64,000 nt of DNA, taken from the IMG/VR virus record IMGVR_UViG_3300036770_008730; one strand, given 5' to 3'. The notes under the pieces are model-generated. The model saw only the letters and a list, made by a program, of their open reading frames with translations. It did not search any database and had not been told where the DNA came from. How positions within the stretch are numbered: position 1 is the first letter of the stretch; each line of letters starts with the position of its first letter. Positions 12,165 through 24,469 of the stretch are shown one piece after another. Origin of the DNA: a virus (Duplodnaviria; Caudoviricetes). Both the position numbers and the translations under genes were made by a program.

Positions 12165-13862
12165 ATGGCTTCTTATAATAACTTCAATAGCTCTTCAAAT
12201 ACCGGTGGTTTTATTCAAAATTCAGCTGTTGAAAACAAAGGTTTATTCAGTAGAATACTAAGAAATCTATCATCATATGGTATGAATTATGATGATATGA
12301 TTATTCGTAATCAAGTTGGTATTGGTGTTAATGAAGATCCATATGCTGCAAGAGGAAATTCAATGTATGATTTTTTTTCACAGAGAGCTGTAGCTTCTGT
12401 TTTGAATCGAAAATCAATTCCTTATTTAGATAAATCTTATGCTGATAAAAGAAGAATTTTAAGAGAGTATTCTATAAAAGATGAGATACGAGACTTTGTA
12501 AGTTCTCTTTCAGATGAATGTATTATTTACAATGATGAGAGAGATTTTTGTTTTCCAAAAAAAATATCAAATGAATATCCTCAGGAAATTCAAGATAAAT
12601 ATCAAGAATACTTTGAAAAAGTCTATATTAAGTATGGATTTAGTGATAATATCAGTGCTTGGAGTATGATGAAAGACTTCCTTATTGATGGTTATTTAGC
12701 AGTAGAGATAGTCTATGATGATAAAAAGAAAAATATTATTGCTTTCAATAGATTAAGACCTGAGACTTTAGTTCCAGCATATGAACCAAATGTTGGTCAT
12801 CTTTGGATTCAATTTCCAGAAGATCCACAATTAAGAAGAATATTTTTAGATTCTCAAATTGTTTTTATTTCTTACTCTTCTCAGAACGATTATAGTGAGA
12901 CTTCCTATGTTGAGGGTTTAATTAAACCATATAATCAGTTAAAGATTTTAGAACAAACTAGAATTATGTTTAACGTTATTAATGCTACTATGTATCAAAA
13001 GTTTACTATACCAATTAAAGGTATGTCAAGACAAAGAGCTGAAGAGCAAATTGGGCAATTGATACAGGATTACTCAGAGGAAGTAGAATGGGATGATACA
13101 CTTGGTACGTTAAGCATCAATGGTTCAAAACATTTACCTTATAATAAGCAGATTTGGTTTCCTGATGGTGATGCTGGTACACCTAATATGGAATTAGTTA
13201 GTCAAGAAGGTCATAACTTGAATGAACAGGATATGTTGACTTGGTTTTTTAATGCTCTTAAAAGAGCGTCGAGAATACCACTTCAAAGATTTGAAAAAGA
13301 AAGTGGTGGTGGTAATTTAATTACTGATGCTGCTGAGATGACAAGAGATGAGATTAAGTTTTATAATTTTATCAATAGAATAAGGGCTAATTTCAAAGAG
13401 TTAATAGTTAAGCCTCTTAAATTACAAATGTTAATTGAATTTCCAGAATTAAAAGATGATGAGGTTTTCATAAATCAAATAGACATTGGATTCAATACTA
13501 ATCAAGTTTTTGAAGAGTGGAAGAAACTGAATAATATGAGTAAGAAGGCCGAGATTTTTGGAACTTTAATTGGTATTATGAATGGTGAAAAGCCTTATTT
13601 CCATATCGAGTATTTAATTGATAATGTTTTCAAACTTACGGCTGAAGAAAAGGCTGAGAATCAAAAGTATTGGGCTAAGGATGCGGCCGCTGCTGGTGCC
13701 GCTGCTCCCGCTGAGGGTGGTGCTCCTGCTGAAGGTGGTGGTGAAGCTCCTCCTGCTGAGGGTGGTGAAGCTCCTCCTGCTGAGGGTGGTGGTGAAGCTC
13801 CTCCTGCTGAGGGTGGTGGTGAAGCTCCTCCTGCTGAAGGTGGTGGTGAATTTGAATTTTAA
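12165..13862 (+). CDS. gp20: Portal protein (T4 gp20-like) with a disordered repeat C-tail
   Basis: FLIDGYLAVEIVYD, RIMFNVINA, LTWFFNALKRASRIPLQRF and ITRDEIKF-like (MTRDEIKF) motifs of gp20 portals; upstream of protease and capsid genes. Confidence 0.85.
   Translation: MASYNNFNSSSNTGGFIQNSAVENKGLFSRILRNLSSYGMNYDDMIIRNQVGIGVNEDPYAARGNSMYDFFSQRAVASVLNRKSIPYLDKSYADKRRILREYSIKDEIRDFVSSLSDECIIYNDERDFCFPKKISNEYPQEIQDKYQEYFEKVYIKYGFSDNISAWSMMKDFLIDGYLAVEIVYDDKKKNIIAFNRLRPETLVPAYEPNVGHLWIQFPEDPQLRRIFLDSQIVFISYSSQNDYSETSYVEGLIKPYNQLKILEQTRIMFNVINATMYQKFTIPIKGMSRQRAEEQIGQLIQDYSEEVEWDDTLGTLSINGSKHLPYNKQIWFPDGDAGTPNMELVSQEGHNLNEQDMLTWFFNALKRASRIPLQRFEKESGGGNLITDAAEMTRDEIKFYNFINRIRANFKELIVKPLKLQMLIEFPELKDDEVFINQIDIGFNTNQVFEEWKKLNNMSKKAEIFGTLIGIMNGEKPYFHIEYLIDNVFKLTAEEKAENQKYWAKDAAAAGAAAPAEGGAPAEGGGEAPPAEGGEAPPAEGGGEAPPAEGGGEAPPAEGGGEFEF
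13710..13850 (+). repeat. GC-rich coding tandem repeat GCTGAGGGTGGT(GGT)GAAGCTCCTCCT encoding AEGG(G)EAPP
   Basis: About 5 copies directly visible at the portal 3' end. Confidence 0.9.
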
Positions 13863-13868
13863 TAGAAT

Positions 13869-13896
13869 AAAAAAACCTATCATTTTGATAGGTTTT
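13869..13896. terminator. Bidirectional intrinsic terminator
   Basis: AAAACCTATCA-TTT-TGATAGGTTTT between convergent genes. Confidence 0.8.
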
Positions 13897-14272
13897 ATTG
13901 TTTTCTGGATATATTATCAACTCCGTATTTCTCAATTAGAGTTGATTTCATTTTGTTCAAAACTTTTTTATTTTGTATTGGATAATCAACACCAAAGTTT
14001 TTTTGTAAGGTTTTTTTCCTCTTATACTCTGAACATCTTCTACATAAATACTCTCCCCATTTATTATCATATTTTATGTAATTTTTGAATATTACGGATT
14101 TTTCTATTCCACAGTTATCGCATTTGCAAACTATTTTATAATGAGAACCTTTTGACATTAATTCAATCGGAATGATAACTTCTTCTCCTATTGTTACGTC
14201 ATAACCTAAATCTTCGTAGTAGTGATAATTGGACTCACTTATTTTTATTGTTATTTCTCTTGTTAGAATCAT
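13895..14272 (-). CDS. Homing-endonuclease-derived zinc-ribbon DNA-binding protein without a nuclease domain
   Basis: CKCDNC..CRRC and FGVDYP/KYGVDNIS repeats of the type seen in ORF 48611; the ORF ends right after them. Confidence 0.55.
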   Translation of the reverse strand: MILTREITIKISESNYHYYEDLGYDVTIGEEVIIPIELMSKGSHYKIVCKCDNCGIEKSVIFKNYIKYDNKWGEYLCRRCSEYKRKKTLQKNFGVDYPIQNKKVLNKMKSTLIEKYGVDNISRKQ

Positions 14273-14429: not shown

Positions 14430-16595
14430 ATGAAACCGGTTCTAATCGTAGAAAATTCAACTTCTTCTCTTCTCAGAGAGAATAATAGTGGCAGAAAAGA
14501 TTATGTGTTAGGTGGTACTTTTACAGAGTTTGGTGTTAAAAACCGTAACGAAAGAGTATATACAGCAGATAAATTTCTTCCAGCATTAGATGAACTTAAT
14601 GAGAGAATGAAAACGCTTGGTGCAGTTTACGGAGAATTCGATCATCCAGATGTTTTTGATACATCTTTATCAAGAGCATCACACGTTATCACAAAGGCAG
14701 AATACTTAAAAGAATCCAATAAAGTTACTGGTGAAATCAGACTACTTAGTACATATTGGGGTAAAGAAGCTAAGTCTTTGGTAGATGATGGATGTCCTGT
14801 CTTCGTATCTTCAAGAGCGGCTGGTGTTACAGAGTCTGATGGTTCTGTTTCTCTAAAAAAATTGTTCACATATGACATCGTTGCTGACCCAGGTTTTGCT
14901 TCTGCAAAAATGAGTGTTAAAAGTCTTAACGAGTCACTTGGATACAACCCAAAATCTAACTTTAGGATATATGAAATGTCCGATGAGTCCAAAATAAATG
15001 AACTATTCAATATGAATAAAGATGAATTTGTAACAAAAAAACAATTAACTGATTACTCTAAATATTTAGTTAATGAATTAGCTTCTACAAAGAAAGAAGT
15101 TAAGAGTGCAATTTCAAAAGGGAATATGAATCCTAAGAAATTGGAGCAGTTACTTGAATACTACGAAGAATTAAATAAGACAAACGGTCAAGTTGTTAAA
15201 TACTTAGACTATTTGGCTGAGAAAGTACAAGTAATGGTAAATGAAAACAAGTCTTTAAAAGCGACTACTGATAAACTTATTAAACACAATGATTATTTAG
15301 CAGAGAATTTAGAAAAAGCGGTAAACTATTCTGAATACTTAGCAGAAAATCTTGACAAAAACATTGAGTATTCTGAATACTTAGCAGAAAACTTAGATAG
15401 AAATATTTCTTATTCTGAGTATATCGCTGAAAATTTAGATAAAAACATTTCTTATTCTGAATACTTAGCAGAAAACTTAGATAAGAATATTGCTTACTCT
15501 GAGTATATCGCAGAAAACTTAGATAAGAATATCGCTTATTCTGAGTATATCGCAGAAAACTTAGACAAAAACATTGGATATTCTGAATATTTAGCTGAGC
15601 ATGTTGACAATTCAATTGCTTATTCTGAATATTTAGCTGAGCATGTTGAAGGTAACATCGCTTACTCTGAATACATTGCTGAACATTTAGATGATAACAT
15701 TGCTTATTCTGAGTATATCGCAGAAAATCTTGATAAATCAATTTCTTATCAGTCACTAATTACTGAAAAATTAAATGGTACAAGATTAAACGAAAATAAT
15801 GATCATGACGCTTTACCTGGAGTAAATGTTGTTGGTATTGAAAATGTTGAAGATGCTGACAATGATGATAATTGTGGACCAGTTAAAAATAATGATGGAG
15901 ACGATGATGATGCTGACTTAGCTGGTATCAGTCATGGTAATCCAGAAAATAAATGGAATAAAGAAAATAATGATGGAGACGGTGATGCTGATGGAGATGC
16001 TGATGCTGATGCTGATGGAGACGGAGCTTATGGACATGATGGTGCACATAACAACGCTCACTTAGAAGGTAACTCTGATTCTGAATTATCAAAATCTATT
16101 AATAAATTAATTGAAGAAGCTAAAAAACGTAAAGTTTCTGAAACAACTGACTTGAATTTCTTAAAGTTCTTAAACAAGTCACAAGTTGATAGCTTTTATG
16201 CACTTACAGAGAGTGAACAAGAAACTGTTAAACTTCACATAAACGAAAGAAGTTATTTCACACAAAAAGAAGTATTGTCTCTAATTGCAGAAGCTTTGTC
16301 TACAAAGAATGAATCTATCGAAGAAAGAGTAATCAGATTGATGCCTGAAAACATTAAGCCAATCTGGAATCAGTTAAATGAGTCTTCTAAAAAATCAGTG
16401 CTTTCACAAGCTAGATTATATCCAGAAGATGTATTAAAAACTGAAAATCAAGTTGAACATTTCTGGTTAACCAGAAATCTCAAAAAAAATGAGTCTGTAA
16501 CTAAAAAGTTAGTAGCACACGAAAGTTTAATACAAGAAGATAAACTTTCAGATAAAGATGTGAAAGCTATTATGGAAAGATTCAAAACAATTTAA
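14430..16595 (+). CDS. gp21: Prohead protease (T4 gp21-like) fused to a scaffold-like coiled-coil region
   Basis: GVKNRNERVY, YGEFDHP, VFVSSRAAG, TYDIVADPGF protease motifs; followed by 14-aa YSEYLAENLDKNIx repeats. Confidence 0.85.
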   Translation: MKPVLIVENSTSSLLRENNSGRKDYVLGGTFTEFGVKNRNERVYTADKFLPALDELNERMKTLGAVYGEFDHPDVFDTSLSRASHVITKAEYLKESNKVTGEIRLLSTYWGKEAKSLVDDGCPVFVSSRAAGVTESDGSVSLKKLFTYDIVADPGFASAKMSVKSLNESLGYNPKSNFRIYEMSDESKINELFNMNKDEFVTKKQLTDYSKYLVNELASTKKEVKSAISKGNMNPKKLEQLLEYYEELNKTNGQVVKYLDYLAEKVQVMVNENKSLKATTDKLIKHNDYLAENLEKAVNYSEYLAENLDKNIEYSEYLAENLDRNISYSEYIAENLDKNISYSEYLAENLDKNIAYSEYIAENLDKNIAYSEYIAENLDKNIGYSEYLAEHVDNSIAYSEYLAEHVEGNIAYSEYIAEHLDDNIAYSEYIAENLDKSISYQSLITEKLNGTRLNENNDHDALPGVNVVGIENVEDADNDDNCGPVKNNDGDDDDADLAGISHGNPENKWNKENNDGDGDADGDADADADGDGAYGHDGAHNNAHLEGNSDSELSKSINKLIEEAKKRKVSETTDLNFLKFLNKSQVDSFYALTESEQETVKLHINERSYFTQKEVLSLIAEALSTKNESIEERVIRLMPENIKPIWNQLNESSKKSVLSQARLYPEDVLKTENQVEHFWLTRNLKKNESVTKKLVAHESLIQEDKLSDKDVKAIMERFKTI
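15290..15760 (+). repeat. 42-bp coding tandem repeat (14 aa, two heptads): 10 YSEY units plus degenerate flanks
   Basis: TATTCTGA(A/G)TA(C/T)(T/A)T..GC.GAAAA..T.GA.AA.AA.AT. units read directly. Confidence 0.9.
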
Positions 16596-16673: not shown

Positions 16674-18368
16674 ATGTCACACATTAGAATAGACAAACAA
16701 AAAGCAGTTAAGAAATGGGCTCCAGTGTTGGAGAACATGGGTGTAACTGGTGAGAGAGTTGACTGGATGGCTGAATACGCTGAGTTCCACTCAATTAATG
16801 AAAATGCATACGTAAACGCTTCTAACGTAGCGGGTATGGGTGCTGTTTTTAATCCAACTGTAGGTACATTAGCTGGTAGCCCAACATTAGGTGGAGCACT
16901 TGCTGGTTCTGGAGATGTAGGTCAAAACTTACTTCCTGTAGCTATGAAAATTGCAGCTCAAACAATCGGTTTAGATTTAGTAGCTGTAAAACCTTCTCCA
17001 GGTCCAAAAATTGACTTACTTTATATCGATTTCCGTTATGACGATACTCGTGAAGGTAACTTAGATGAGAGACCACAAGTTTTCAAATTTAATCAAACTA
17101 CTTGGTTATCTGCTATTCAAGCAGCAATCAGAGCTGATTTAACTGTTGCTGGTGGTGCTCCTGCTGCTATTAGCGAATCAACTGGTGGTTTATCAAACGG
17201 TAGAGTATGGTATAATATCAATGATGGTAGTGTAACTTATACTGATCCAGGTTCTGGTTCAAAAGCTAACTTAGTTGAGTTCTTAGGTTTCTCTCGTATT
17301 GATGGTTATCCAATGTTCAGAGCTTACAGACAAAATAATACAGCTCATACAGCTACTAACCCAGCTGGTGGTTCTACATTATGGTCATTTGATGCTACTA
17401 GAAATACATTCAATGCAACACAGTCAATGACTGATCAAATCGTATTAATCGCTGGTGTTACTGCTTCGGGTGGTGCTGTTGAATTAGTATCTGCTCTTGA
17501 AGATCATATCCCAGGTTTCTCTGCAAACTGGACATCTGCATCTTCTGGAAGTGCTGCTGGTTCTTATCCAATGTCTCGTCAAGATGATGATGATACATAT
17601 GCAGGTGTTATTGGTCCTAAGATTTCTTCTAAAACTATCGCAGTTGGTACTATTGAAGTATCTTCAGCTTTAAGAAGAACTGAAATCGAAGATATCAAAG
17701 CTAACACAGGTATGGATATCGTTCAAAAAATGGAATCTATCTTAGTTAATGAATTATCTCAAACAATCTCTAAGCAAATTGTTGCTAAGATTTTTGAAAT
17801 GGGTGCGTTAAACAGATCTACTGCTCCTTTAAGAAGTGGTGCATCTATCTTTGACTTAGATACAAATTATGCATATGGTGCTTCTAGTCCGGGTGGTGAA
17901 ACTACACACGCGGTTCAACGTAAGTTAATCACTAAGATTGCTCACGCTTCTAACTATATCGCAACTGAAGGTCGTGTTGGTCCTGCTCAATACCTTATCA
18001 CAAACGGGGGTCTTGCAGCTGCTTTATCTGATATTGCTGGTTATACAATTAACCCTTTAAAATCTAAAATGAATACACAAGGTCAACTTTACCCAGTTGG
18101 TTCAATCGGTGATATTTCAATTTATGTTGACCCATATATGAAGTACAACGATAACAGAATCGTTTTAGGTCGTAAAAATAATCCTGACCAACCAGGTATC
18201 ATTTTCGTTCCTTACTTAATGGCTCAGTCTATTTCGGTTATCTCTGAAGCTACATTCGCTCCAAGAATGTTGTTAAGAAGCCGTTACGCTGTAGCAGAAG
18301 TAGGTTGGTTCCCACAAAAACAGTTCATGCAAATCAATGTAACTGATGGACAAGGATTTCTTAACTAA
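16674..18368 (+). CDS. gp23: Major capsid protein (T4 gp23-like)
   Basis: KWAPVLE, AQTIGLDLVAVKP, LVNELSQTISK, IYVDPY, PGIIFVPY, APRMLLRSRYA motifs; high-expression codon use; strong terminator. Confidence 0.9.
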   Translation: MSHIRIDKQKAVKKWAPVLENMGVTGERVDWMAEYAEFHSINENAYVNASNVAGMGAVFNPTVGTLAGSPTLGGALAGSGDVGQNLLPVAMKIAAQTIGLDLVAVKPSPGPKIDLLYIDFRYDDTREGNLDERPQVFKFNQTTWLSAIQAAIRADLTVAGGAPAAISESTGGLSNGRVWYNINDGSVTYTDPGSGSKANLVEFLGFSRIDGYPMFRAYRQNNTAHTATNPAGGSTLWSFDATRNTFNATQSMTDQIVLIAGVTASGGAVELVSALEDHIPGFSANWTSASSGSAAGSYPMSRQDDDDTYAGVIGPKISSKTIAVGTIEVSSALRRTEIEDIKANTGMDIVQKMESILVNELSQTISKQIVAKIFEMGALNRSTAPLRSGASIFDLDTNYAYGASSPGGETTHAVQRKLITKIAHASNYIATEGRVGPAQYLITNGGLAAALSDIAGYTINPLKSKMNTQGQLYPVGSIGDISIYVDPYMKYNDNRIVLGRKNNPDQPGIIFVPYLMAQSISVISEATFAPRMLLRSRYAVAEVGWFPQKQFMQINVTDGQGFLN

Positions 18369-18380
18369 TTCTTAATAATC

Positions 18381-18416
18381 AAAAGAAAAAGACCCTTAAT
18401 GGGTCTTTTTTCTTTT
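18381..18416 (+). terminator. Intrinsic terminator after the capsid gene
   Basis: AAAAGAAAAAGACCC-TTAAT-GGGTCTTTTTTCTTTT. Confidence 0.85.
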
Positions 18417-18435
18417 TAAAATTAATATATACTCT

Positions 18436-18852
18436 ATGAAGTATATCAAATATTTTGAAGGTAAAAAAGATAAATTTCCTAATCTTAAAAAGATTGAAAA
18501 GGATGAATTTGTAATATATGTAGGTGGTGATGCTAAATCTAATGACTATCTCACCTTCAATATGGCTAATGATGATGATATTTGGTTACATGCTATGGGT
18601 CTTCCAGGAAGTCATGTTGTTATCAAAATTAAAAGTTCCCAGAATATACAAGAAAAAACTTTACCTACAGATGTAGTCTTAAGATTTGCAGCTGAGTTGG
18701 CTAAAAAACACAGTAAAGCGCCTAAAGATCAACCCTGTGATGTTAGATGGTGCCAAAGAAAGTTTGTCTATAAAACACCAAATATGAATACAGGTGAAGT
18801 TGGAATAGAAAAGCAAATAGAAATGGATCCTACCAAAAAGATTACAATTTAA
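18436..18852 (+). CDS. Stand-alone NFACT RNA-binding (NFACT-R/DUF814) domain protein
   Basis: IYVGGDAKSNDYLT..DDIWLHAMGLPGSHVVIK..AAELA motif of the RqcH/FbpA C-terminal domain. Confidence 0.8.
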   Translation: MKYIKYFEGKKDKFPNLKKIEKDEFVIYVGGDAKSNDYLTFNMANDDDIWLHAMGLPGSHVVIKIKSSQNIQEKTLPTDVVLRFAAELAKKHSKAPKDQPCDVRWCQRKFVYKTPNMNTGEVGIEKQIEMDPTKKITI

Positions 18853-18871
18853 TTTAATATATACTATTATT

Positions 18872-20212
18872 ATGGCTGAAATTAAACCCATCTTCACAGA
18901 AGAATTACAAAAAATTCTAAAAGAATTAGAATCAGAAAATAACTATGTTGCTTTTGAGTTGATGTGGATGTCTGAACCAGATTCTAAATTTCATAACGGA
19001 TTAAGAATATCAAAAGTAGATGTTTCTAAGCAGGATTATTGCTTTGATGTTACTATTGATGGTAAAACACATCCAATGAAAATTGGAAAGTTTATAAGAT
19101 ACTTTTTAGCTAATATTATAAAGGATAATGAGGCTGTTGAATTTTCAAAACTTTATAATAATCTTAAAAAAGGTGAAAAGATACAATCCGGAACTCCTAT
19201 TACTATTGATAAGTTTTCTTACAATCCAAGAGATGTTAAAGCAACTTTTCTTTCTTTGGTTACAAAAACTTATCCTCATGGACATGAAGAAGAAGTATTA
19301 CAATTTTTACCGGGACTTAAAAAAGATCAATTTGGTAACTACTATAAAATAATAGGTAATATACAACCTCAAACTATGTTTACCTCGCATTTAGACACCG
19401 CAGATAGACAGCAAAAAGTTACAAAACTTTTTTCTATGGTTGAAGATGGTGAAGAATATATTTATACTGATGAAAGTACTATATTAGGCGCTGATGATAA
19501 GTCTGGTGTTGTGGTGATGTTATATATGATGACATATAATATACCAGGTCTTTATTATTTCTTTATTGGTGAAGAAAGAGGTGGAATCGGTTCTAATGCA
19601 TTGGCTTCTATTTTTGACCAAATTGATTATTTGAAGAATGTCAAAAGATGTATATCTTTTGATAGAAGAAACTATCACTCTGTTATCACAAGTCAATTAG
19701 GAAGAACTTGTTGTTCTAATGAGTTTGGAAATGCACTTTGTGATGAATATAATAGAAATGGATTAAGTTTATCTTTAGATAATACAGGTATTTACACAGA
19801 TTCTGCATCTTTTATGGATGATATTAGAGAATGTACTAATATATCTGTTGGTTATTTTAATGAACATACTGGAAAAGAATATCAAAATATAACTTACTTA
19901 AAGAATCTTTGTGAAGCTTCTGTTAAGGTTAATTGGAATTCTTTGCCTTCTGTTAGAAAGGCTGGATTAAATGAGGAAGTTATGAAAAAACACAGATTGC
20001 TTATCCAAGATATAAAAAAATCTGTTTTTGACTTAGAAACAAAAATAGTTGGTGAAGAAGGTAGAGTGTTTATCAGAGTTGATTTAGATGAGACTGACGT
20101 TGACGCTATTTCCAATGGCTTAAACATGGTTGATAGTATTCTTACTAAACATAAAATTAACAACAATGATGTAGTATTTACCAATACTTACATGAAAATA
20201 GAATTAAGATAA
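18872..20212 (+). CDS. Zinc aminopeptidase-like protein (M28/M20 clan MH)
   Basis: SHLDT, LGADDKSG, GEERG, SFDR, NEHT metal and catalytic motifs. Confidence 0.75.
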   Translation: MAEIKPIFTEELQKILKELESENNYVAFELMWMSEPDSKFHNGLRISKVDVSKQDYCFDVTIDGKTHPMKIGKFIRYFLANIIKDNEAVEFSKLYNNLKKGEKIQSGTPITIDKFSYNPRDVKATFLSLVTKTYPHGHEEEVLQFLPGLKKDQFGNYYKIIGNIQPQTMFTSHLDTADRQQKVTKLFSMVEDGEEYIYTDESTILGADDKSGVVVMLYMMTYNIPGLYYFFIGEERGGIGSNALASIFDQIDYLKNVKRCISFDRRNYHSVITSQLGRTCCSNEFGNALCDEYNRNGLSLSLDNTGIYTDSASFMDDIRECTNISVGYFNEHTGKEYQNITYLKNLCEASVKVNWNSLPSVRKAGLNEEVMKKHRLLIQDIKKSVFDLETKIVGEEGRVFIRVDLDETDVDAISNGLNMVDSILTKHKINNNDVVFTNTYMKIELR

Positions 20213-20213
20213 T

Positions 20214-20684
20214 ATGAATCTAAAAAAGTTTAATCAATTTGAAAAATACGAAAGTCCTTGGGATGAAGAAGATGAGTCATATTATAACGATGATCAATAT
20301 CTTTTTGGAAGACCATATCATTCAAATAAAGACAAAGGCAAATCTGAAGAAGAAGAGGAGGAAGATGAGTATGAAGATATAGATGATGATCAGAATGAGG
20401 ATATTCAACACTTGATGGATTTATTGAGAACCTATTTTGAAAACCAAGGTGTAGAAGTAGATATAGAAAATAAAGGATTAGATATCACAATATCAACTTA
20501 TCTTAATAAAGTAGAGAAATTAAAAAATATCATTAAAGTTTTTAACATAGTTAAAAAAGTTAAAAAAGATATTTTACCACAATATGAATCTGAGTTTGAA
20601 CTATGGGAAACAAAGGATAAAAGTCCTGTGCTTTATTTTAGTTTTTACTATGAAGGTGATTTCGATGATGAAAAACCATTCTAA
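20214..20684 (+). CDS. Acidic hypothetical protein with capsid-targeting-like N-terminus
   Basis: MNLKKFNQFEKYES start; poly-E/D tract. Confidence 0.55.
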   Translation: MNLKKFNQFEKYESPWDEEDESYYNDDQYLFGRPYHSNKDKGKSEEEEEEDEYEDIDDDQNEDIQHLMDLLRTYFENQGVEVDIENKGLDITISTYLNKVEKLKNIIKVFNIVKKVKKDILPQYESEFELWETKDKSPVLYFSFYYEGDFDDEKPF

Positions 20685-20718
20685 ACTTTTCTTAATTTTT
20701 TAATATTATATATACTTT

Positions 20719-21094
20719 GGGGAAGTGATAGAATAGATTCGCAGAGTGAGATCAATTATGCAGACATCGGTTGGTAAAATATCCGATTAATAAATTAGGT
20801 TACATCTGTCTTAAATGGCAAAACAAATGAAGTAGGAACCCGTGAAGATTTAGTAGCGGCTCTACAAAACAACCTGTTCTTGGTAGAAGAACTAGAGACA
20901 GCTTAACAAAGCATCTCTAAAAAATTCTCCAACTGAATCACAACAGTTCATAAAATAGTGAAACCTGAGTTGTTAGAATGGCGGGTAATTCAACTAACTA
21001 TTTTGTGAGTTTAGAAAAACTTTCTAAGTCTGTGAATGAATAGTTTATTTTAACTGAGGAAGACACCAGGGGCGGTTCCTGGTCTTCTCCACCA
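20719..21094 (+). ncRNA. ssrA: tmRNA (phage-encoded)
   Basis: 5' GGGGAAG pairs with 3' CTTCTCC-ACCA including G3:U; T-arm CCAGG-GGCGGTT-CCTGG; GCAGAC/GTCTGT helix; tag frame TAAAT-GGC...GCT-TAA at 20817-20906. Confidence 0.9.
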
Positions 21095-21098
21095 CATT

Positions 21099-21124
21099 AA
21101 AAGTCCACTTTGGTGGACTTTTTT
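21099..21124 (+). terminator. Intrinsic terminator after tmRNA
   Basis: AAAAGTCCAC-TTTG-GTGGACTTTTTT. Confidence 0.85.
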
Positions 21125-21145
21125 AGTTTAAAACATATAAATTAA

Positions 21146-21628
21146 ATGATAGATAAATTTGACGGTAAATACCGATTCTTAAGTAACTTTTATCCCTGTA
21201 AAATAGAACATCAGGGAATCACTTATCCAAGTGTGGAACATTATTATGTTGCAATGAAAGTCAATGATGAACAACTTATTAATGGTAAATATTACACTCC
21301 TGGTGATTTTAGAGAAATGATAAGTAGAGTAAAAGAAGCTGCCTTAGTTAAAAAAATTGGAAATAAAATTAAATTAAGATCTGACTGGGATAATAAAAAG
21401 TTAGATGTAATGAATTGGGCAATTAGAGAAAAATTCAAAGATGAGAATCTGAAGGAATTGTTACTTGGTACCGGTGATCAGGAACTTATTGAGGGAAATT
21501 TTTGGAAGGACTTTTTCTGGGGAGTTTGTAACGGTAGGGGCCAAAATCATTTAGGTAAAATCTTAATGATAGTTAGAGATGAGATAAGAGGAATCAAAAA
21601 GACTGGATTGGAAGAGTTTCTTAAATAG
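21146..21628 (+). CDS. NADAR (YbiA-like) family protein
   Basis: FLSNFYP..YPSVEHYY..LIEGNFWKDFFWG..GQNHLGKILM motifs. Confidence 0.85.
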   Translation: MIDKFDGKYRFLSNFYPCKIEHQGITYPSVEHYYVAMKVNDEQLINGKYYTPGDFREMISRVKEAALVKKIGNKIKLRSDWDNKKLDVMNWAIREKFKDENLKELLLGTGDQELIEGNFWKDFFWGVCNGRGQNHLGKILMIVRDEIRGIKKTGLEEFLK

Positions 21629-21677: not shown

Positions 21678-22622
21678 ATGGCGGCAATAAGTTATTTTGG
21701 AGGCAAAAGCTCAAATGTATTCATAGAATTCATTAATAAAAAAATACCTAAAACAGGAATAAAGACCTATTTAGAACCATTCTCTGGTTCAATGGGAACA
21801 TATATGGATGATGATAATCTTAAGTTTGATATTGTTATCTATAATGATAAAAATCGCCACCAGGTTAACCTATATAAGTGTTGTTCACAACCTGATAAGT
21901 TCTTACCTTATTTAGATAATCTAAAAAAGACATTATTATATACAACAGAAACAGATCCATTGAAAAAATGGGACTTCTACAAAAAAATTTATAAAGATTA
22001 TCAAAAGAATAATTTCCTAGATGATATGAATTTTGAAATTGGTGATTTTGAGAAAGCTTCAATTTATGCTTTTCTTATCACATCTGCTCATAATTCTGTT
22101 TATCCTCGTGGTGCGGGATTCAATGGGTATAAAAAAGATAAAGATAAACTTAAATTAGAAGTCCTTATTGATAAATTAAAGAAGAATAAATATACTTCAA
22201 AACTTCAGTCTATTACTGATTTCTTTAATGAAGATTTTGAATCTCTTATTAAGAGATATGATTCGGAAGATACTTACATATATTTAGATCCTCCGTATGC
22301 TAGATTTGATGATAAAAAGGGAGAAGATGATGCTAAAAGATTATTCTGGTATGGCGCTGATGCTGATGGTGTATTTGGACCAGCTTCTCATAGAAGACTT
22401 TTGGAGTTAATTAAAACAACAAAATCTCGTTGGTCACTTTCTTATTATTATTTTCCTTTATTGGAAGAATTATTACCGAAAGACAAATATATTTGGACTG
22501 AAAAAGAGGTATTTAGAAGTTCTGCTCAAGGTGGTAATAATGCTGATACCAAAAAAGAACAATCCAAAGGTGTTGAACTTTTAATTTTGAATTATGATCC
22601 ACAGACCGGTAAAAAATTATAA
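21678..22622 (+). CDS. DNA adenine methyltransferase (D12/Dam class)
   Basis: YFGGK, YLEPFSG and YLDPPY motifs; target sequence cannot be read from the sequence. Confidence 0.8.
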   Translation: MAAISYFGGKSSNVFIEFINKKIPKTGIKTYLEPFSGSMGTYMDDDNLKFDIVIYNDKNRHQVNLYKCCSQPDKFLPYLDNLKKTLLYTTETDPLKKWDFYKKIYKDYQKNNFLDDMNFEIGDFEKASIYAFLITSAHNSVYPRGAGFNGYKKDKDKLKLEVLIDKLKKNKYTSKLQSITDFFNEDFESLIKRYDSEDTYIYLDPPYARFDDKKGEDDAKRLFWYGADADGVFGPASHRRLLELIKTTKSRWSLSYYYFPLLEELLPKDKYIWTEKEVFRSSAQGGNNADTKKEQSKGVELLILNYDPQTGKKL

Positions 22623-23941: not shown

Positions 23942-24469
23942 ATGATAAACTCTAAGCCAAATAATTCAAATTACCATCAAGGTAATTATATACCAAAAAA
24001 TAAAGATAAAGTCATCAAATTAAATAATTATGGTGGTGTTCACTTCAGGTCTTCTTGGGAAAAGAAAATTATGACCTGGCTTGATTACAATACTTCTATC
24101 ACAAAATGGGGATCTGAATGTTTACGGATACCTTATCAAATGACACATTTTGATAATGGTGATACAAAAATTAAAGAACATTCTTATTATCCGGACTTTT
24201 ACTATGAGATGAGACTTCCGGATGGTAGTTTAAGACAGGTTGTAGTTGAGGTTAAGCCAATGAAAGAGTATAAAATGGTTCAGAGTCTAAATGAAGGTAG
24301 TTTACAAGTTCCTCAGAATGGTGCGAAAAAACTTAAGAACTTTGAATACGACTTAAAGATGGCTTATAAGAACAAGCAAAAATGGGAAACAATGATAAAC
24401 TGGTGTAATAAAAAGGGTTACGATTTTATCATCATAACAGAGGAACATCTTAAAAAGTTCAACTTATAA
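23942..24469 (+). CDS. gp4: Head completion nuclease (T4 gp4-like, TnsA-type)
   Basis: FRSSWE..WLD..KWGSE..IPY..YYPDF..VEVKP motifs. Confidence 0.8.
   Translation: MINSKPNNSNYHQGNYIPKNKDKVIKLNNYGGVHFRSSWEKKIMTWLDYNTSITKWGSECLRIPYQMTHFDNGDTKIKEHSYYPDFYYEMRLPDGSLRQVVVEVKPMKEYKMVQSLNEGSLQVPQNGAKKLKNFEYDLKMAYKNKQKWETMINWCNKKGYDFIIITEEHLKKFNL

Follow-up and report, generated by a model that had tools for sequence, protein, structure and literature searches.

The window analyzed here is a stretch of 64,000 nucleotides from the IMG/VR virus record IMGVR_UViG_3300036770_008730 (Caudoviricetes). Downstream of the major capsid gene it contains a gene for a protein made of one NFACT-R domain (Table 1). 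This open reading frame is a real gene, with chance excluded, and it belongs to the single-copy core of a clade of huge phages rather than being a sporadic pick-up. Taken as a whole, the data are best explained, tentatively and with somewhat less than even confidence, by a captured NFACT-R domain that promotes the release of nascent chains on obstructed large ribosomal subunits.

Several independent methods agree on the identity of the domain. The translated frame has the N-terminus MKYIKYFEGKKDKFP (first residues MKYIKYFEGKK), and the start MKYIKYFE reported in the initial annotation was thus seen in the translation. The Pfam family NFACT-R_1 (PF05670) matched residues 21-125 with an E-value of 3.5e-14 (53.7 bits, with a cut-off of 29.8). 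No second domain was found in the Pfam search of this frame, and the protein ends 13 residues past the NFACT-R domain. An AlphaFold2 model, for which 29 relatives served as input, had a pLDDT of 89.5 and a pTM of 0.82. All 14 Foldseek matches to PDB with E-values of at most 1e-3 were NFACT-R domains, namely those of RqcH/FBPS, CCDC25, NEMF, and Rqc2, and the Foldseek probability was 1.0 for 5H3W, 7AQC, 7EOE, 9GY4, and 8AAF. The comparison with RqcH structures that had been proposed earlier therefore returned an NFACT-R fold, with RqcH, CCDC25, and NEMF among the best matches, and the assignment of the protein as the RNA-binding domain of RqcH alone was confirmed by Pfam, AlphaFold2, and Foldseek together.

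The family profile aligned with residues 444-554 of Bacillus subtilis RqcH (E-value 1.8e-23, 85.8 bits, beginning at the phage residues KFP), as compared with 48.8 bits for CCDC25. The protein, with a pI of 9.0, begins with a tag of 8 residues, and a short basic arm, GKKDKFP, leads from this tag to the single NFACT-R domain. [quoted passage not shown] No family for this protein was found in PHROGs or PADLOC. Among NCBIfam models, only the C-terminal parts of the RqcH/EfbA models matched, far under their cut-offs.

Table 1. Features of the window around the NFACT-R gene. Fractions of 80 refer to the related loci kept.
Feature	Position	Strand	Evidence and remarks
T4-type portal gene	12165..13862	+	Pfam Portal_T4, E 1.7e-54
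Prohead protease (S77/gp21-like) fused to a repeat-rich scaffold-like region	14430..16595	+	PHROG 207, E 2e-30; Peptidase_S77, E 2.9e-5; 78/80
gp23-like major capsid protein gene	16674..18368	+	Pfam Gp23, E 5.8e-28; 78% identical to LR745206; 80/80
Intrinsic terminator after the capsid gene	18385..18421	+	11-bp stem, T run
Promoter-like box TTAATATATA	18422..18431	+	ends 4 nt before ATG
Stand-alone NFACT-R protein gene	18436..18852	+	138 aa; Pfam, profile alignment, AlphaFold2, Foldseek; 80/80
N-terminal tag MKYIKYFE (residues 1-8), T4-CTS-like	18436..18459	+	disordered; ends in invariant Glu
D48-I-W50-L-H52, the DWH (DxxxH) motif	18577..18591	+	invariant in 54/54 family domains; aligned to RqcH DIWLH
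P57-G-S-H60 motif with the second conserved His	18604..18615	+	invariant in 54/54; aligned to RqcH PGSH
PepT/M28-like metallopeptidase, downstream neighbour	18872..20212	+	PHROG 4191, E 2.6e-67; 75/80
Acidic 156-aa protein, tag MNLKKFNQFE, conserved neighbour	20214..20684	+	73/80
Divergent tmRNA-like gene (predicted)	20719..21094	+	alignment and covariation; 376 nt
NADAR-domain gene, end of the conserved block	21146..21628	+	Pfam NADAR, E 7.8e-26; 61/80
Dam methylase gene, after NADAR	21678-22622		Pfam MethyltransfD12, E 5e-14; 48/80

Conservation within the family is concentrated in the motifs by which RqcH is recognized. Residues S35-D37, D48, W50, H52, P57-H60, and S93 are invariant in all 54 distinct family domains. 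The signature of the NFACT-R domain in NFACT proteins is a DxxxH motif on strand 3 together with a conserved Ser in helix 2 (Burroughs and Aravind, 2014, PMC4075521). Both parts are present in the phage protein, where S93 aligns with the SKA motif of RqcH, and the model has a strand at residues 49-53 and a helix at residues 79-91. In B. subtilis RqcH, NFACT-R is located at the A-site finger, and mutation of DWH abolishes 50S binding, which also needs the coiled-coil contact; it is NFACT-N and HhH, rather than NFACT-R, that hold the tRNA (bioRxiv 10.1101/2020.09.03.281279). Since the DWH motif needed by RqcH for 50S binding is invariant in the phage family, 50S subunits or peptidyl-tRNA are a reasonable target, and it is probable, to a modest degree, that the protein acts on one or the other.

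A possible activity is suggested by Jlp2, a solo NFACT-R protein of yeast, which according to a preprint releases peptides from ribosome-bound peptidyl-tRNA (bioRxiv 10.1101/2025.09.04.673968). In that study, H44 of Jlp2 is essential for release and dispensable for ribosome binding, the catalytic His is given as H44 in Jlp2 and H41 in CCDC25, bacterial Pth is cited for the peptidyl-tRNA hydrolysis step, and the authors raise the question whether other NFACT-R domains bearing this His are release factors. In the phage protein, 8 residues separate H52 from H60, the same distance as between H44 and H52 in Jlp2, and by motif position and spacing the phage H52 would be the equivalent of Jlp2 H44. 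By this analogy the phage protein might be a release factor, a proposal that we regard as less likely than not. Two observations weigh against release: bacterial RqcH has the same DWH motif without known peptidyl-tRNA hydrolysis, and the Jlp2 evidence comes from a preprint, on a protein whose C-terminal helical part, also present in CCDC25, is missing in the phage protein.

The genomic setting is that of a T4-like head module. PHROG 207, to which the protease belongs, comprises head maturation proteases. The capsid protein is 76-78% identical to those of LR745206 and LR756502, two uncultured phages of 634-642 kb, and 29% identical to those of Lak phages. Genomes larger than 634 kb were placed in the Mahaphage clade, with Bacteroidetes as predicted hosts (Al-Shayeb et al., 2020, PMC7162821). 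The window, with a G+C content of 30.8%, comes from a Mahaphage-type huge phage whose predicted host belongs to Bacteroidota.

In all 80 loci kept, the NFACT-R gene lies directly 3' of the capsid gene and is the first gene after its terminator. The conserved order is protease-scaffold, capsid, NFACT-R, PepT/M28-like peptidase, acidic protein, NADAR, and Dam methylase, with the frequencies given in Table 1. No family was found for the acidic protein among Pfam and NCBIfam profiles. Exactly one NFACT-R copy was found in each of four relatives of 385-635 kb, three of which are 95-98% complete by CheckV, and NFACT-N (PF05833) was absent from all four.

About 150 proteins of 75-242 aa with 50-96% identity to the window protein were found. 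A scan of IMG/VR gave 117 confirmed loci, with 45-58% identity among the 80 loci kept. Neither of two pattern scans over the species genomes of cellular organisms (185,579 genomes) returned a close relative, which, the scans being limited by their patterns, is weak evidence of absence. The scan based on the single protein gave no match. The cellular matches of the alignment-based scan came only from Clostridia and Coatesbacteria, at 34-39% identity, and the one match that was checked (G001) lies in a frame of 598 aa. Absence from cells is also supported by the nearest ESM-Atlas clusters, which are 94-100% viral. By tblastn of phage records, at least 80% of the query was covered only in two uncultured huge phages, other matches being weaker and partial. 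An exhaustive HMMER search yielded 30 representatives with E-values of at most 1e-30, followed by a continuum into RqcH proteins of about 500 aa. In a FastTree phylogeny of the domains, computed without support values, solo and fused viral forms make up one clade with no full-length RqcH inside. On these searches the family appears to be exclusively viral.

The best full-length cellular match, P0156, is a 543-aa NFACT protein from a Rhodothermaceae MAG that is 42% identical over the domain and has mostly Bacteroidota among its Atlas neighbours. It has in common with the phage family the residues C106, F110, and M117, which are family-specific and missing from B. subtilis RqcH. The most likely origin is a single old capture from the C-terminal domain of a Bacteroidota-type RqcH. 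Evidence on RqcH in the host phylum consists of this one Rhodothermaceae protein, the taxa in the Atlas, and a control genome, that of Bacteroides thetaiotaomicron, in which neither NFACT-N nor NFACT-R was found. The existence of a Bacteroidota-type RqcH such as P0156 means that competition with a host RqcH is possible, which speaks against nascent-chain release as the main role.

No relevant paper on NFACT-R in phages came up in a search of the literature, and none of the three NFACT-R contexts described by Burroughs and Aravind (2014, PMC4075521) is viral. Automatic annotation at JGI already calls relatives of the window protein RQC-family proteins. In the Atlas, a cluster of NFACT-R proteins 129 aa long has mostly Nucleocytoviricota members.

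A terminator and a promoter-like box lie between the capsid gene and the NFACT-R gene. A hairpin with a T run, as in the terminator of the window, is visible at the same site in most of the listed relatives. Within the promoter-like box, AATATATA occupies positions 18424-18431 and is followed by CTCT and the ATG at 18436, exactly the 4-nt gap that the initial annotation had pointed out; among 56 distinct upstream regions from relatives, 49 have the same spacing. The window has 44 copies of the motif [AT]ATATATA: 33 are located no more than 45 nt 5' of a start on the same strand, and 3 are in coding sequence. The spacings to the start cluster at 4-8 nt and 18-30 nt. The motif precedes the portal gene (23 nt upstream), the protease and capsid genes, and the putative tmRNA, whose mature 5' G would lie 4 nt past its box. 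No sigma-70-type promoters above chance were found in the window. Transcription probably starts about 5 nt past the box, and the NFACT-R mRNA would then be leaderless. Co-regulation of the gene with the head genes is plausible. The suggestion of late expression holds in so far as the gene has its own box of the type that precedes the portal, protease, and capsid genes; as a statement on timing it is weakened, because nearly every transcription unit in the window has such a box.

The N-terminal tag is a feature of its own. In the AlphaFold2 model, residues 1-3 and 5-9 have pLDDT values below 50, and the tag lies outside the part aligned with RqcH, which starts at KFP. Across the 54 distinct family domains, 43 different tags of 8-13 aa were found; every one ends in Glu, the following residues are (S/G)KK.KFP, and the P3 residue is mostly Phe, Tyr, Leu, or Ile. 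N-termini of this type are present on 9 of 59 window genes and at none of 300 internal Met sites, the pattern having been written after the sequences were seen. In several relatives (L062, P0142/P0143, and the L043 group), extra domains are located between the tag and NFACT-R or 5' of an internal copy of the tag, and the junctions there read I-N-E/S or I-T-E/G. The capsid protein of the window keeps I-N-E/N at the place where T4 gp23 is cut, and by this analogy the motif is probably a cleavage site in this capsid protein too. The phage SmpB proteins of clade relatives are without the tag, and hence the tag does not mark translation factors in general.

Two simpler accounts of the tag were rejected. 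A mere trace of leaderless translation does not agree with the tagged genes, which have both long and short box spacings, and is also countered by untagged genes with spacings of 4-8 nt. Membership of the fold is contradicted by the low pLDDT, the position outside the RqcH alignment, and the domains inserted between tag and fold in L062 and P0142. The earlier claim that the protein carries a cargo peptide was upheld in the sense that it has the genome-wide T4-CTS-like N-terminus, which is common to the nine window genes. Tag-directed loading into the prohead, with a cut after Glu8, is a coherent hypothesis by analogy with T4, and packaging of the NFACT-R protein itself is possible, with a chance a little below even. 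A gene placed in the head module, with a tagged product, could also indicate a virion- or DNA-related role, an observation that stands against nascent-chain release as the whole explanation.

The RNA in the gap 1.9 kb downstream of the NFACT-R gene, within one conserved block, is identified by alignment and covariation as a putative divergent tmRNA. Its acceptor stem comprises 7 bp (20719-20725 with 21084-21090) with an invariant G3-U pair, and a T-arm of 6 bp (21065-21083) is stacked on it. The tag ORF (20817-20903) starts about 97 nt into the RNA and ends with the stop codon TAA at 20904-20906; its length of 27-29 codons is conserved, and its end is unlike the usual LAA. In an alignment of 12 clade members, the 13 tmRNA pairs were paired in 99.4% of cases (slid controls, 37-59%), and at 5 of them both partners vary. 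ARAGORN and Rfam made no tmRNA call on the 461-nt gap (20685-21145), the best Rfam score being 9.6 bits. SmpB was found to be encoded by all four relatives checked (E-values of 1e-52 to 1e-54). An RF-1-domain ORF of 178 aa was found in LR745206, and an S4 match of the RqcP/Hsp15 type in one of the four relatives only. Pth was absent from all four.

The next gene downstream of NFACT-R encodes the peptidase, whose NCBIfam PepT-like match (E-value 1.1e-10) is under the cut-off. In one 629-kb contig (P0130), NFACT-R is fused to a peptidase that is 46% identical to that of the window. This fusion is treated as a lead only, being a single sequence for which an error in gene calling or an alternative genetic code might account.

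We propose the following mechanism. The DWH/PGSH face would dock at the A-site finger of large subunits still bearing peptidyl-tRNA, as NFACT-R of RqcH does. A protein without NFACT-N, HhH, and the coiled coil could not recruit tRNA-Ala or make Ala tails. Most likely, the stuck nascent chain would be released as by Jlp2, by means of the corresponding His, and the subunits would be recycled for phage translation beside the tmRNA-SmpB system of the phage. Chains set free in this way may be degraded by the neighbouring peptidase. Some copies of the protein may be loaded into the prohead via the T4-CTS-like tag and cut after Glu8.

The initial annotation had read the protein as an injected decoy or dominant-negative that binds tRNA or 50S-peptidyl-tRNA and blocks host RqcH. 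This reading is partly supported: its 50S or peptidyl-tRNA target is reasonable, given the invariant DWH motif. As a dominant-negative, the solo domain would fill the RqcH site at the A-site finger and stop Ala-tailing by the host, and this would fit a protein in which the motif required for 50S binding is invariant, every other part of RqcH is missing, and the closest cellular domain belongs to a Bacteroidota-type RqcH, so that such hosts can have RqcH. What the phage would gain from blocking Ala-tailing is not evident, however, and a lone domain without the second, coiled-coil contact of RqcH with 50S should compete poorly (bioRxiv 10.1101/2020.09.03.281279); moreover, the B. thetaiotaomicron control has no NFACT domain to be blocked, and the block shared with a phage tmRNA, with SmpB encoded by the phages, points to rescue over blockade. 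We consider such a decoy unlikely. The company of tmRNA, SmpB, and peptidase favours rescue. Given a gene that belongs to the core and has a tmRNA in its block, relatives that encode SmpB, and a His that would correspond to H44 of Jlp2, we rate rescue or release no lower in probability than a block of RqcH. Another reading is that of an adaptor: NFACT-R, itself no hydrolase, would recognise peptidyl-tRNA or obstructed subunits and feed the PepT-like peptidase with the nascent chain or with one tagged by tmRNA. In favour of it, the peptidase gene is the neighbour of the NFACT-R gene in 75 of 80 loci, a fused form exists in P0130, and the tmRNA tag is unusual in having 27-29 residues and not ending in LAA. 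Still, the fusion is found in one sequence, neighbouring positions in a block of head genes could be due to nothing more than common timing, and the peptidase is untagged and has no known link to the ribosome. We regard this alternative as very unlikely.

Two further readings place the protein on other nucleic acids. As an internal head protein, it would use the NFACT-R fold as a general nucleic-acid binder, bind the packaged DNA, and be injected along with it. The location right after the capsid gene in the head module, the T4-CTS-like tag, the pI of 9.0, and the structures of CCDC25 bound to DNA (PDB 7EOF and 8WOH, dsDNA binding reported) agree with such a role. Yet the internal proteins of T4 are diverse and have only the CTS in common (PMC3012670), whereas the phage family keeps an enzyme-like invariant set of polar residues, as in RqcH, and its protein is just mildly basic in net charge; this reading, too, is given a low probability, close to that of the adaptor. 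The last, a shield that binds free tRNA against host anticodon nucleases, could appeal to the NFACT-R domain fused to ThiI, a predicted tRNA binder. That version is without the DxxxH and Ser signature kept by the phage protein (PMC4075521), and RqcH holds tRNA with NFACT-N and HhH (bioRxiv 10.1101/2020.09.03.281279). The tRNA-shielding role put forward in the initial annotation thus has no specific support and is extremely improbable.

Nascent-chain release, if true, would make the phage protein the first release factor of the NFACT-R type outside eukaryotes and, if it is packaged, the first packaged translation-rescue enzyme; NFACT-R has hitherto been regarded as a passive docking domain of RqcH and NEMF. 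In its boldest form, which we think distinctly unlikely, the proposal describes a minimal bacterial-type NFACT-R release factor that depends on His52 and is partly delivered by the virion, and that together with tmRNA-SmpB and the peptidase would constitute a phage-owned ribosome quality-control kit that frees the host's obstructed large subunits, starting in the first minutes of infection. The family is a natural test case in any event: a bacterial-type solo NFACT-R of 130 aa with invariant motif residues, fixed in a whole clade of the largest known phages and encoded beside a putative tmRNA. It could reveal whether a lone domain binds 50S, whether it is catalytic, and how huge phages handle stalled host ribosomes. 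The protein is also a concrete cargo candidate for the proposed T4-like head-loading tag.

Among known systems, the closest is RqcH (B. subtilis YloA, PDB 7AQC/7AS8; Streptococcus suis FBPS, 5H3W), which has the same fold and the DIWLH, PGSH, and SKA motifs. The phage protein differs from it in being viral and tagged, in having C106, F110, and M117, and in being without NFACT-N, HhH, and the coiled-coil/M domain. Yeast Jlp2 and human CCDC25 (PDB 7EOE) are likewise stand-alone NFACT-R proteins, with a DxxxH His and a second His 8 residues on that probably correspond to those of the phage protein. The phage protein is not their orthologue, is nearer to bacterial RqcH, and is without their C-terminal coiled-coil part; D46 of Jlp2 is not conserved, being M54 in the phage protein. 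The NFACT-R domain fused to ThiI, predicted to act in a tRNA 4-thiouridylation pathway, belongs to the same superfamily outside NFACT proteins and has no DxxxH and Ser signature (PMC4075521), in contrast to the phage protein, which keeps both and is without the PP-loop domain. The fold also occurs in small solo proteins (105-171 aa) of giant eukaryotic viruses (BFVD M1ICD2, M1HME1, M1HE72, and others; Foldseek E-values of 9e-11 to 5e-7). These are 20-33% identical and belong to another virus realm and to hosts of another domain. The tag resembles the CTS of T4 IPI-III and Alt in being a short N-terminal peptide that starts with MK, has spaced aromatic or aliphatic residues, ends in Glu, and is found on unrelated proteins. 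It is not identical in sequence to the T4 CTS, MKTYQEFIAE, and its P3 residue is mostly Phe, Tyr, or Leu as compared with Leu or Ile in T4. The likeness to T4 extends to the genome of the tagged phage, which encodes a T4-type portal, a gp21-like protease, and a gp23-like capsid protein.

The divergent tmRNA-like gene of the conserved block received no call from ARAGORN or Rfam. Its acceptor stem contains an invariant G3-U pair, while its T-arm shows compensatory changes as well as an unusual 7-nt loop. The tag ORF is conserved, comprises 27-29 codons and ends with TAA; in the window it reads GKTNEV...EELETA. A promoter-like box of its own precedes the gene by 4 nt, and a terminator follows it at about 21100-21125.

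Full SmpB is encoded in all four relatives of 385-635 kb (E about 1e-52 to 1e-54). The SmpB ORFs read in three related IMG/VR loci (L089, L090, and L092) have an ordinary N-terminus, and no tag was found there in any of the three. An RF-1/GGQ-domain ORF, possibly ArfB-like, was found in the uncultured sister huge phage LR745206 and in none of the 3 other relatives checked.

Several types of NFACT-R fusion were found among the relatives. In 13 contigs, the domain is fused to a 200-aa unknown domain. Other fusions include a ~100-aa acidic domain in one or two copies, with a tag-like peptide before each copy, or a 150-aa part containing a hydrophobic helix. NFACT-R joined to the downstream PepT-like peptidase was found in one case only.

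In 13 window genes the distance from the end of the promoter-like [AT]ATATATA box to the ATG is 4-8 nt; in 19 others it is 18-30 nt. Shine-Dalgarno-like sequences are absent from the window. Together, the box spacing and this absence suggest, at the level of sequence, that many of the window mRNAs are leaderless.

In the head module, one gene product combines the prohead protease domain with a D/G-rich acidic stretch and a tandem array of a 13-aa repeat, YSEY[IL]AENLDKNI[AS], in about eleven copies; judged from its sequence, it looks like a protease-scaffold fusion. The DUF7487-like ORF and the TnsA-like endonuclease gene may be mobile nuclease insertions in this module. The NADAR protein has a further match, to the PADLOC candidate PDC-M42C (E 1.2e-10).

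Table. Locations of features in the window and in related phages
Feature	Location	Strand	Remark
Small DUF7487-like ORF	13895-14272	-	Between portal and protease genes, opposite strand
Prohead protease with tandem repeats	14430-16595	+	
tmRNA-like gene	20719-21094	+	Acceptor stem, T-arm, tag ORF
NADAR-domain gene	21146-21628	+	Near end of conserved block
Dam (D12) methylase gene	21678-22622	+	Closes block with NADAR gene
TnsA-like endonuclease gene	23942-24469	+	
Box, examples	9407, 11697, 18424, 23903(-), 23930, 30358, 32727(-)		Window-wide
SmpB ORFs	L089:190-687, L090:270-707, L092:290-724		Relatives
RF-1/GGQ-domain ORF	LR745206.1 48139-48459	-	Sister phage; only 178 aa
NFACT-R fusions	P0130; P0142/P0143; P0126; L062:5521-6354; L043:5680-6384		Homologous proteins (P) and related loci (L)

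The NFACT-R fold also occurs in small proteins of the viral structure library BFVD (M1ICD2, M1HME1, M1HE72, A0A0P0YM59, and V5LR89; 105-171 aa), which probably originate from giant viruses of eukaryotes. The ESM-Atlas contains one cluster of 129-aa NFACT-R proteins, whose members belong mostly to Nucleocytoviricota. Solo NFACT-R may have been acquired by viruses recurrently.
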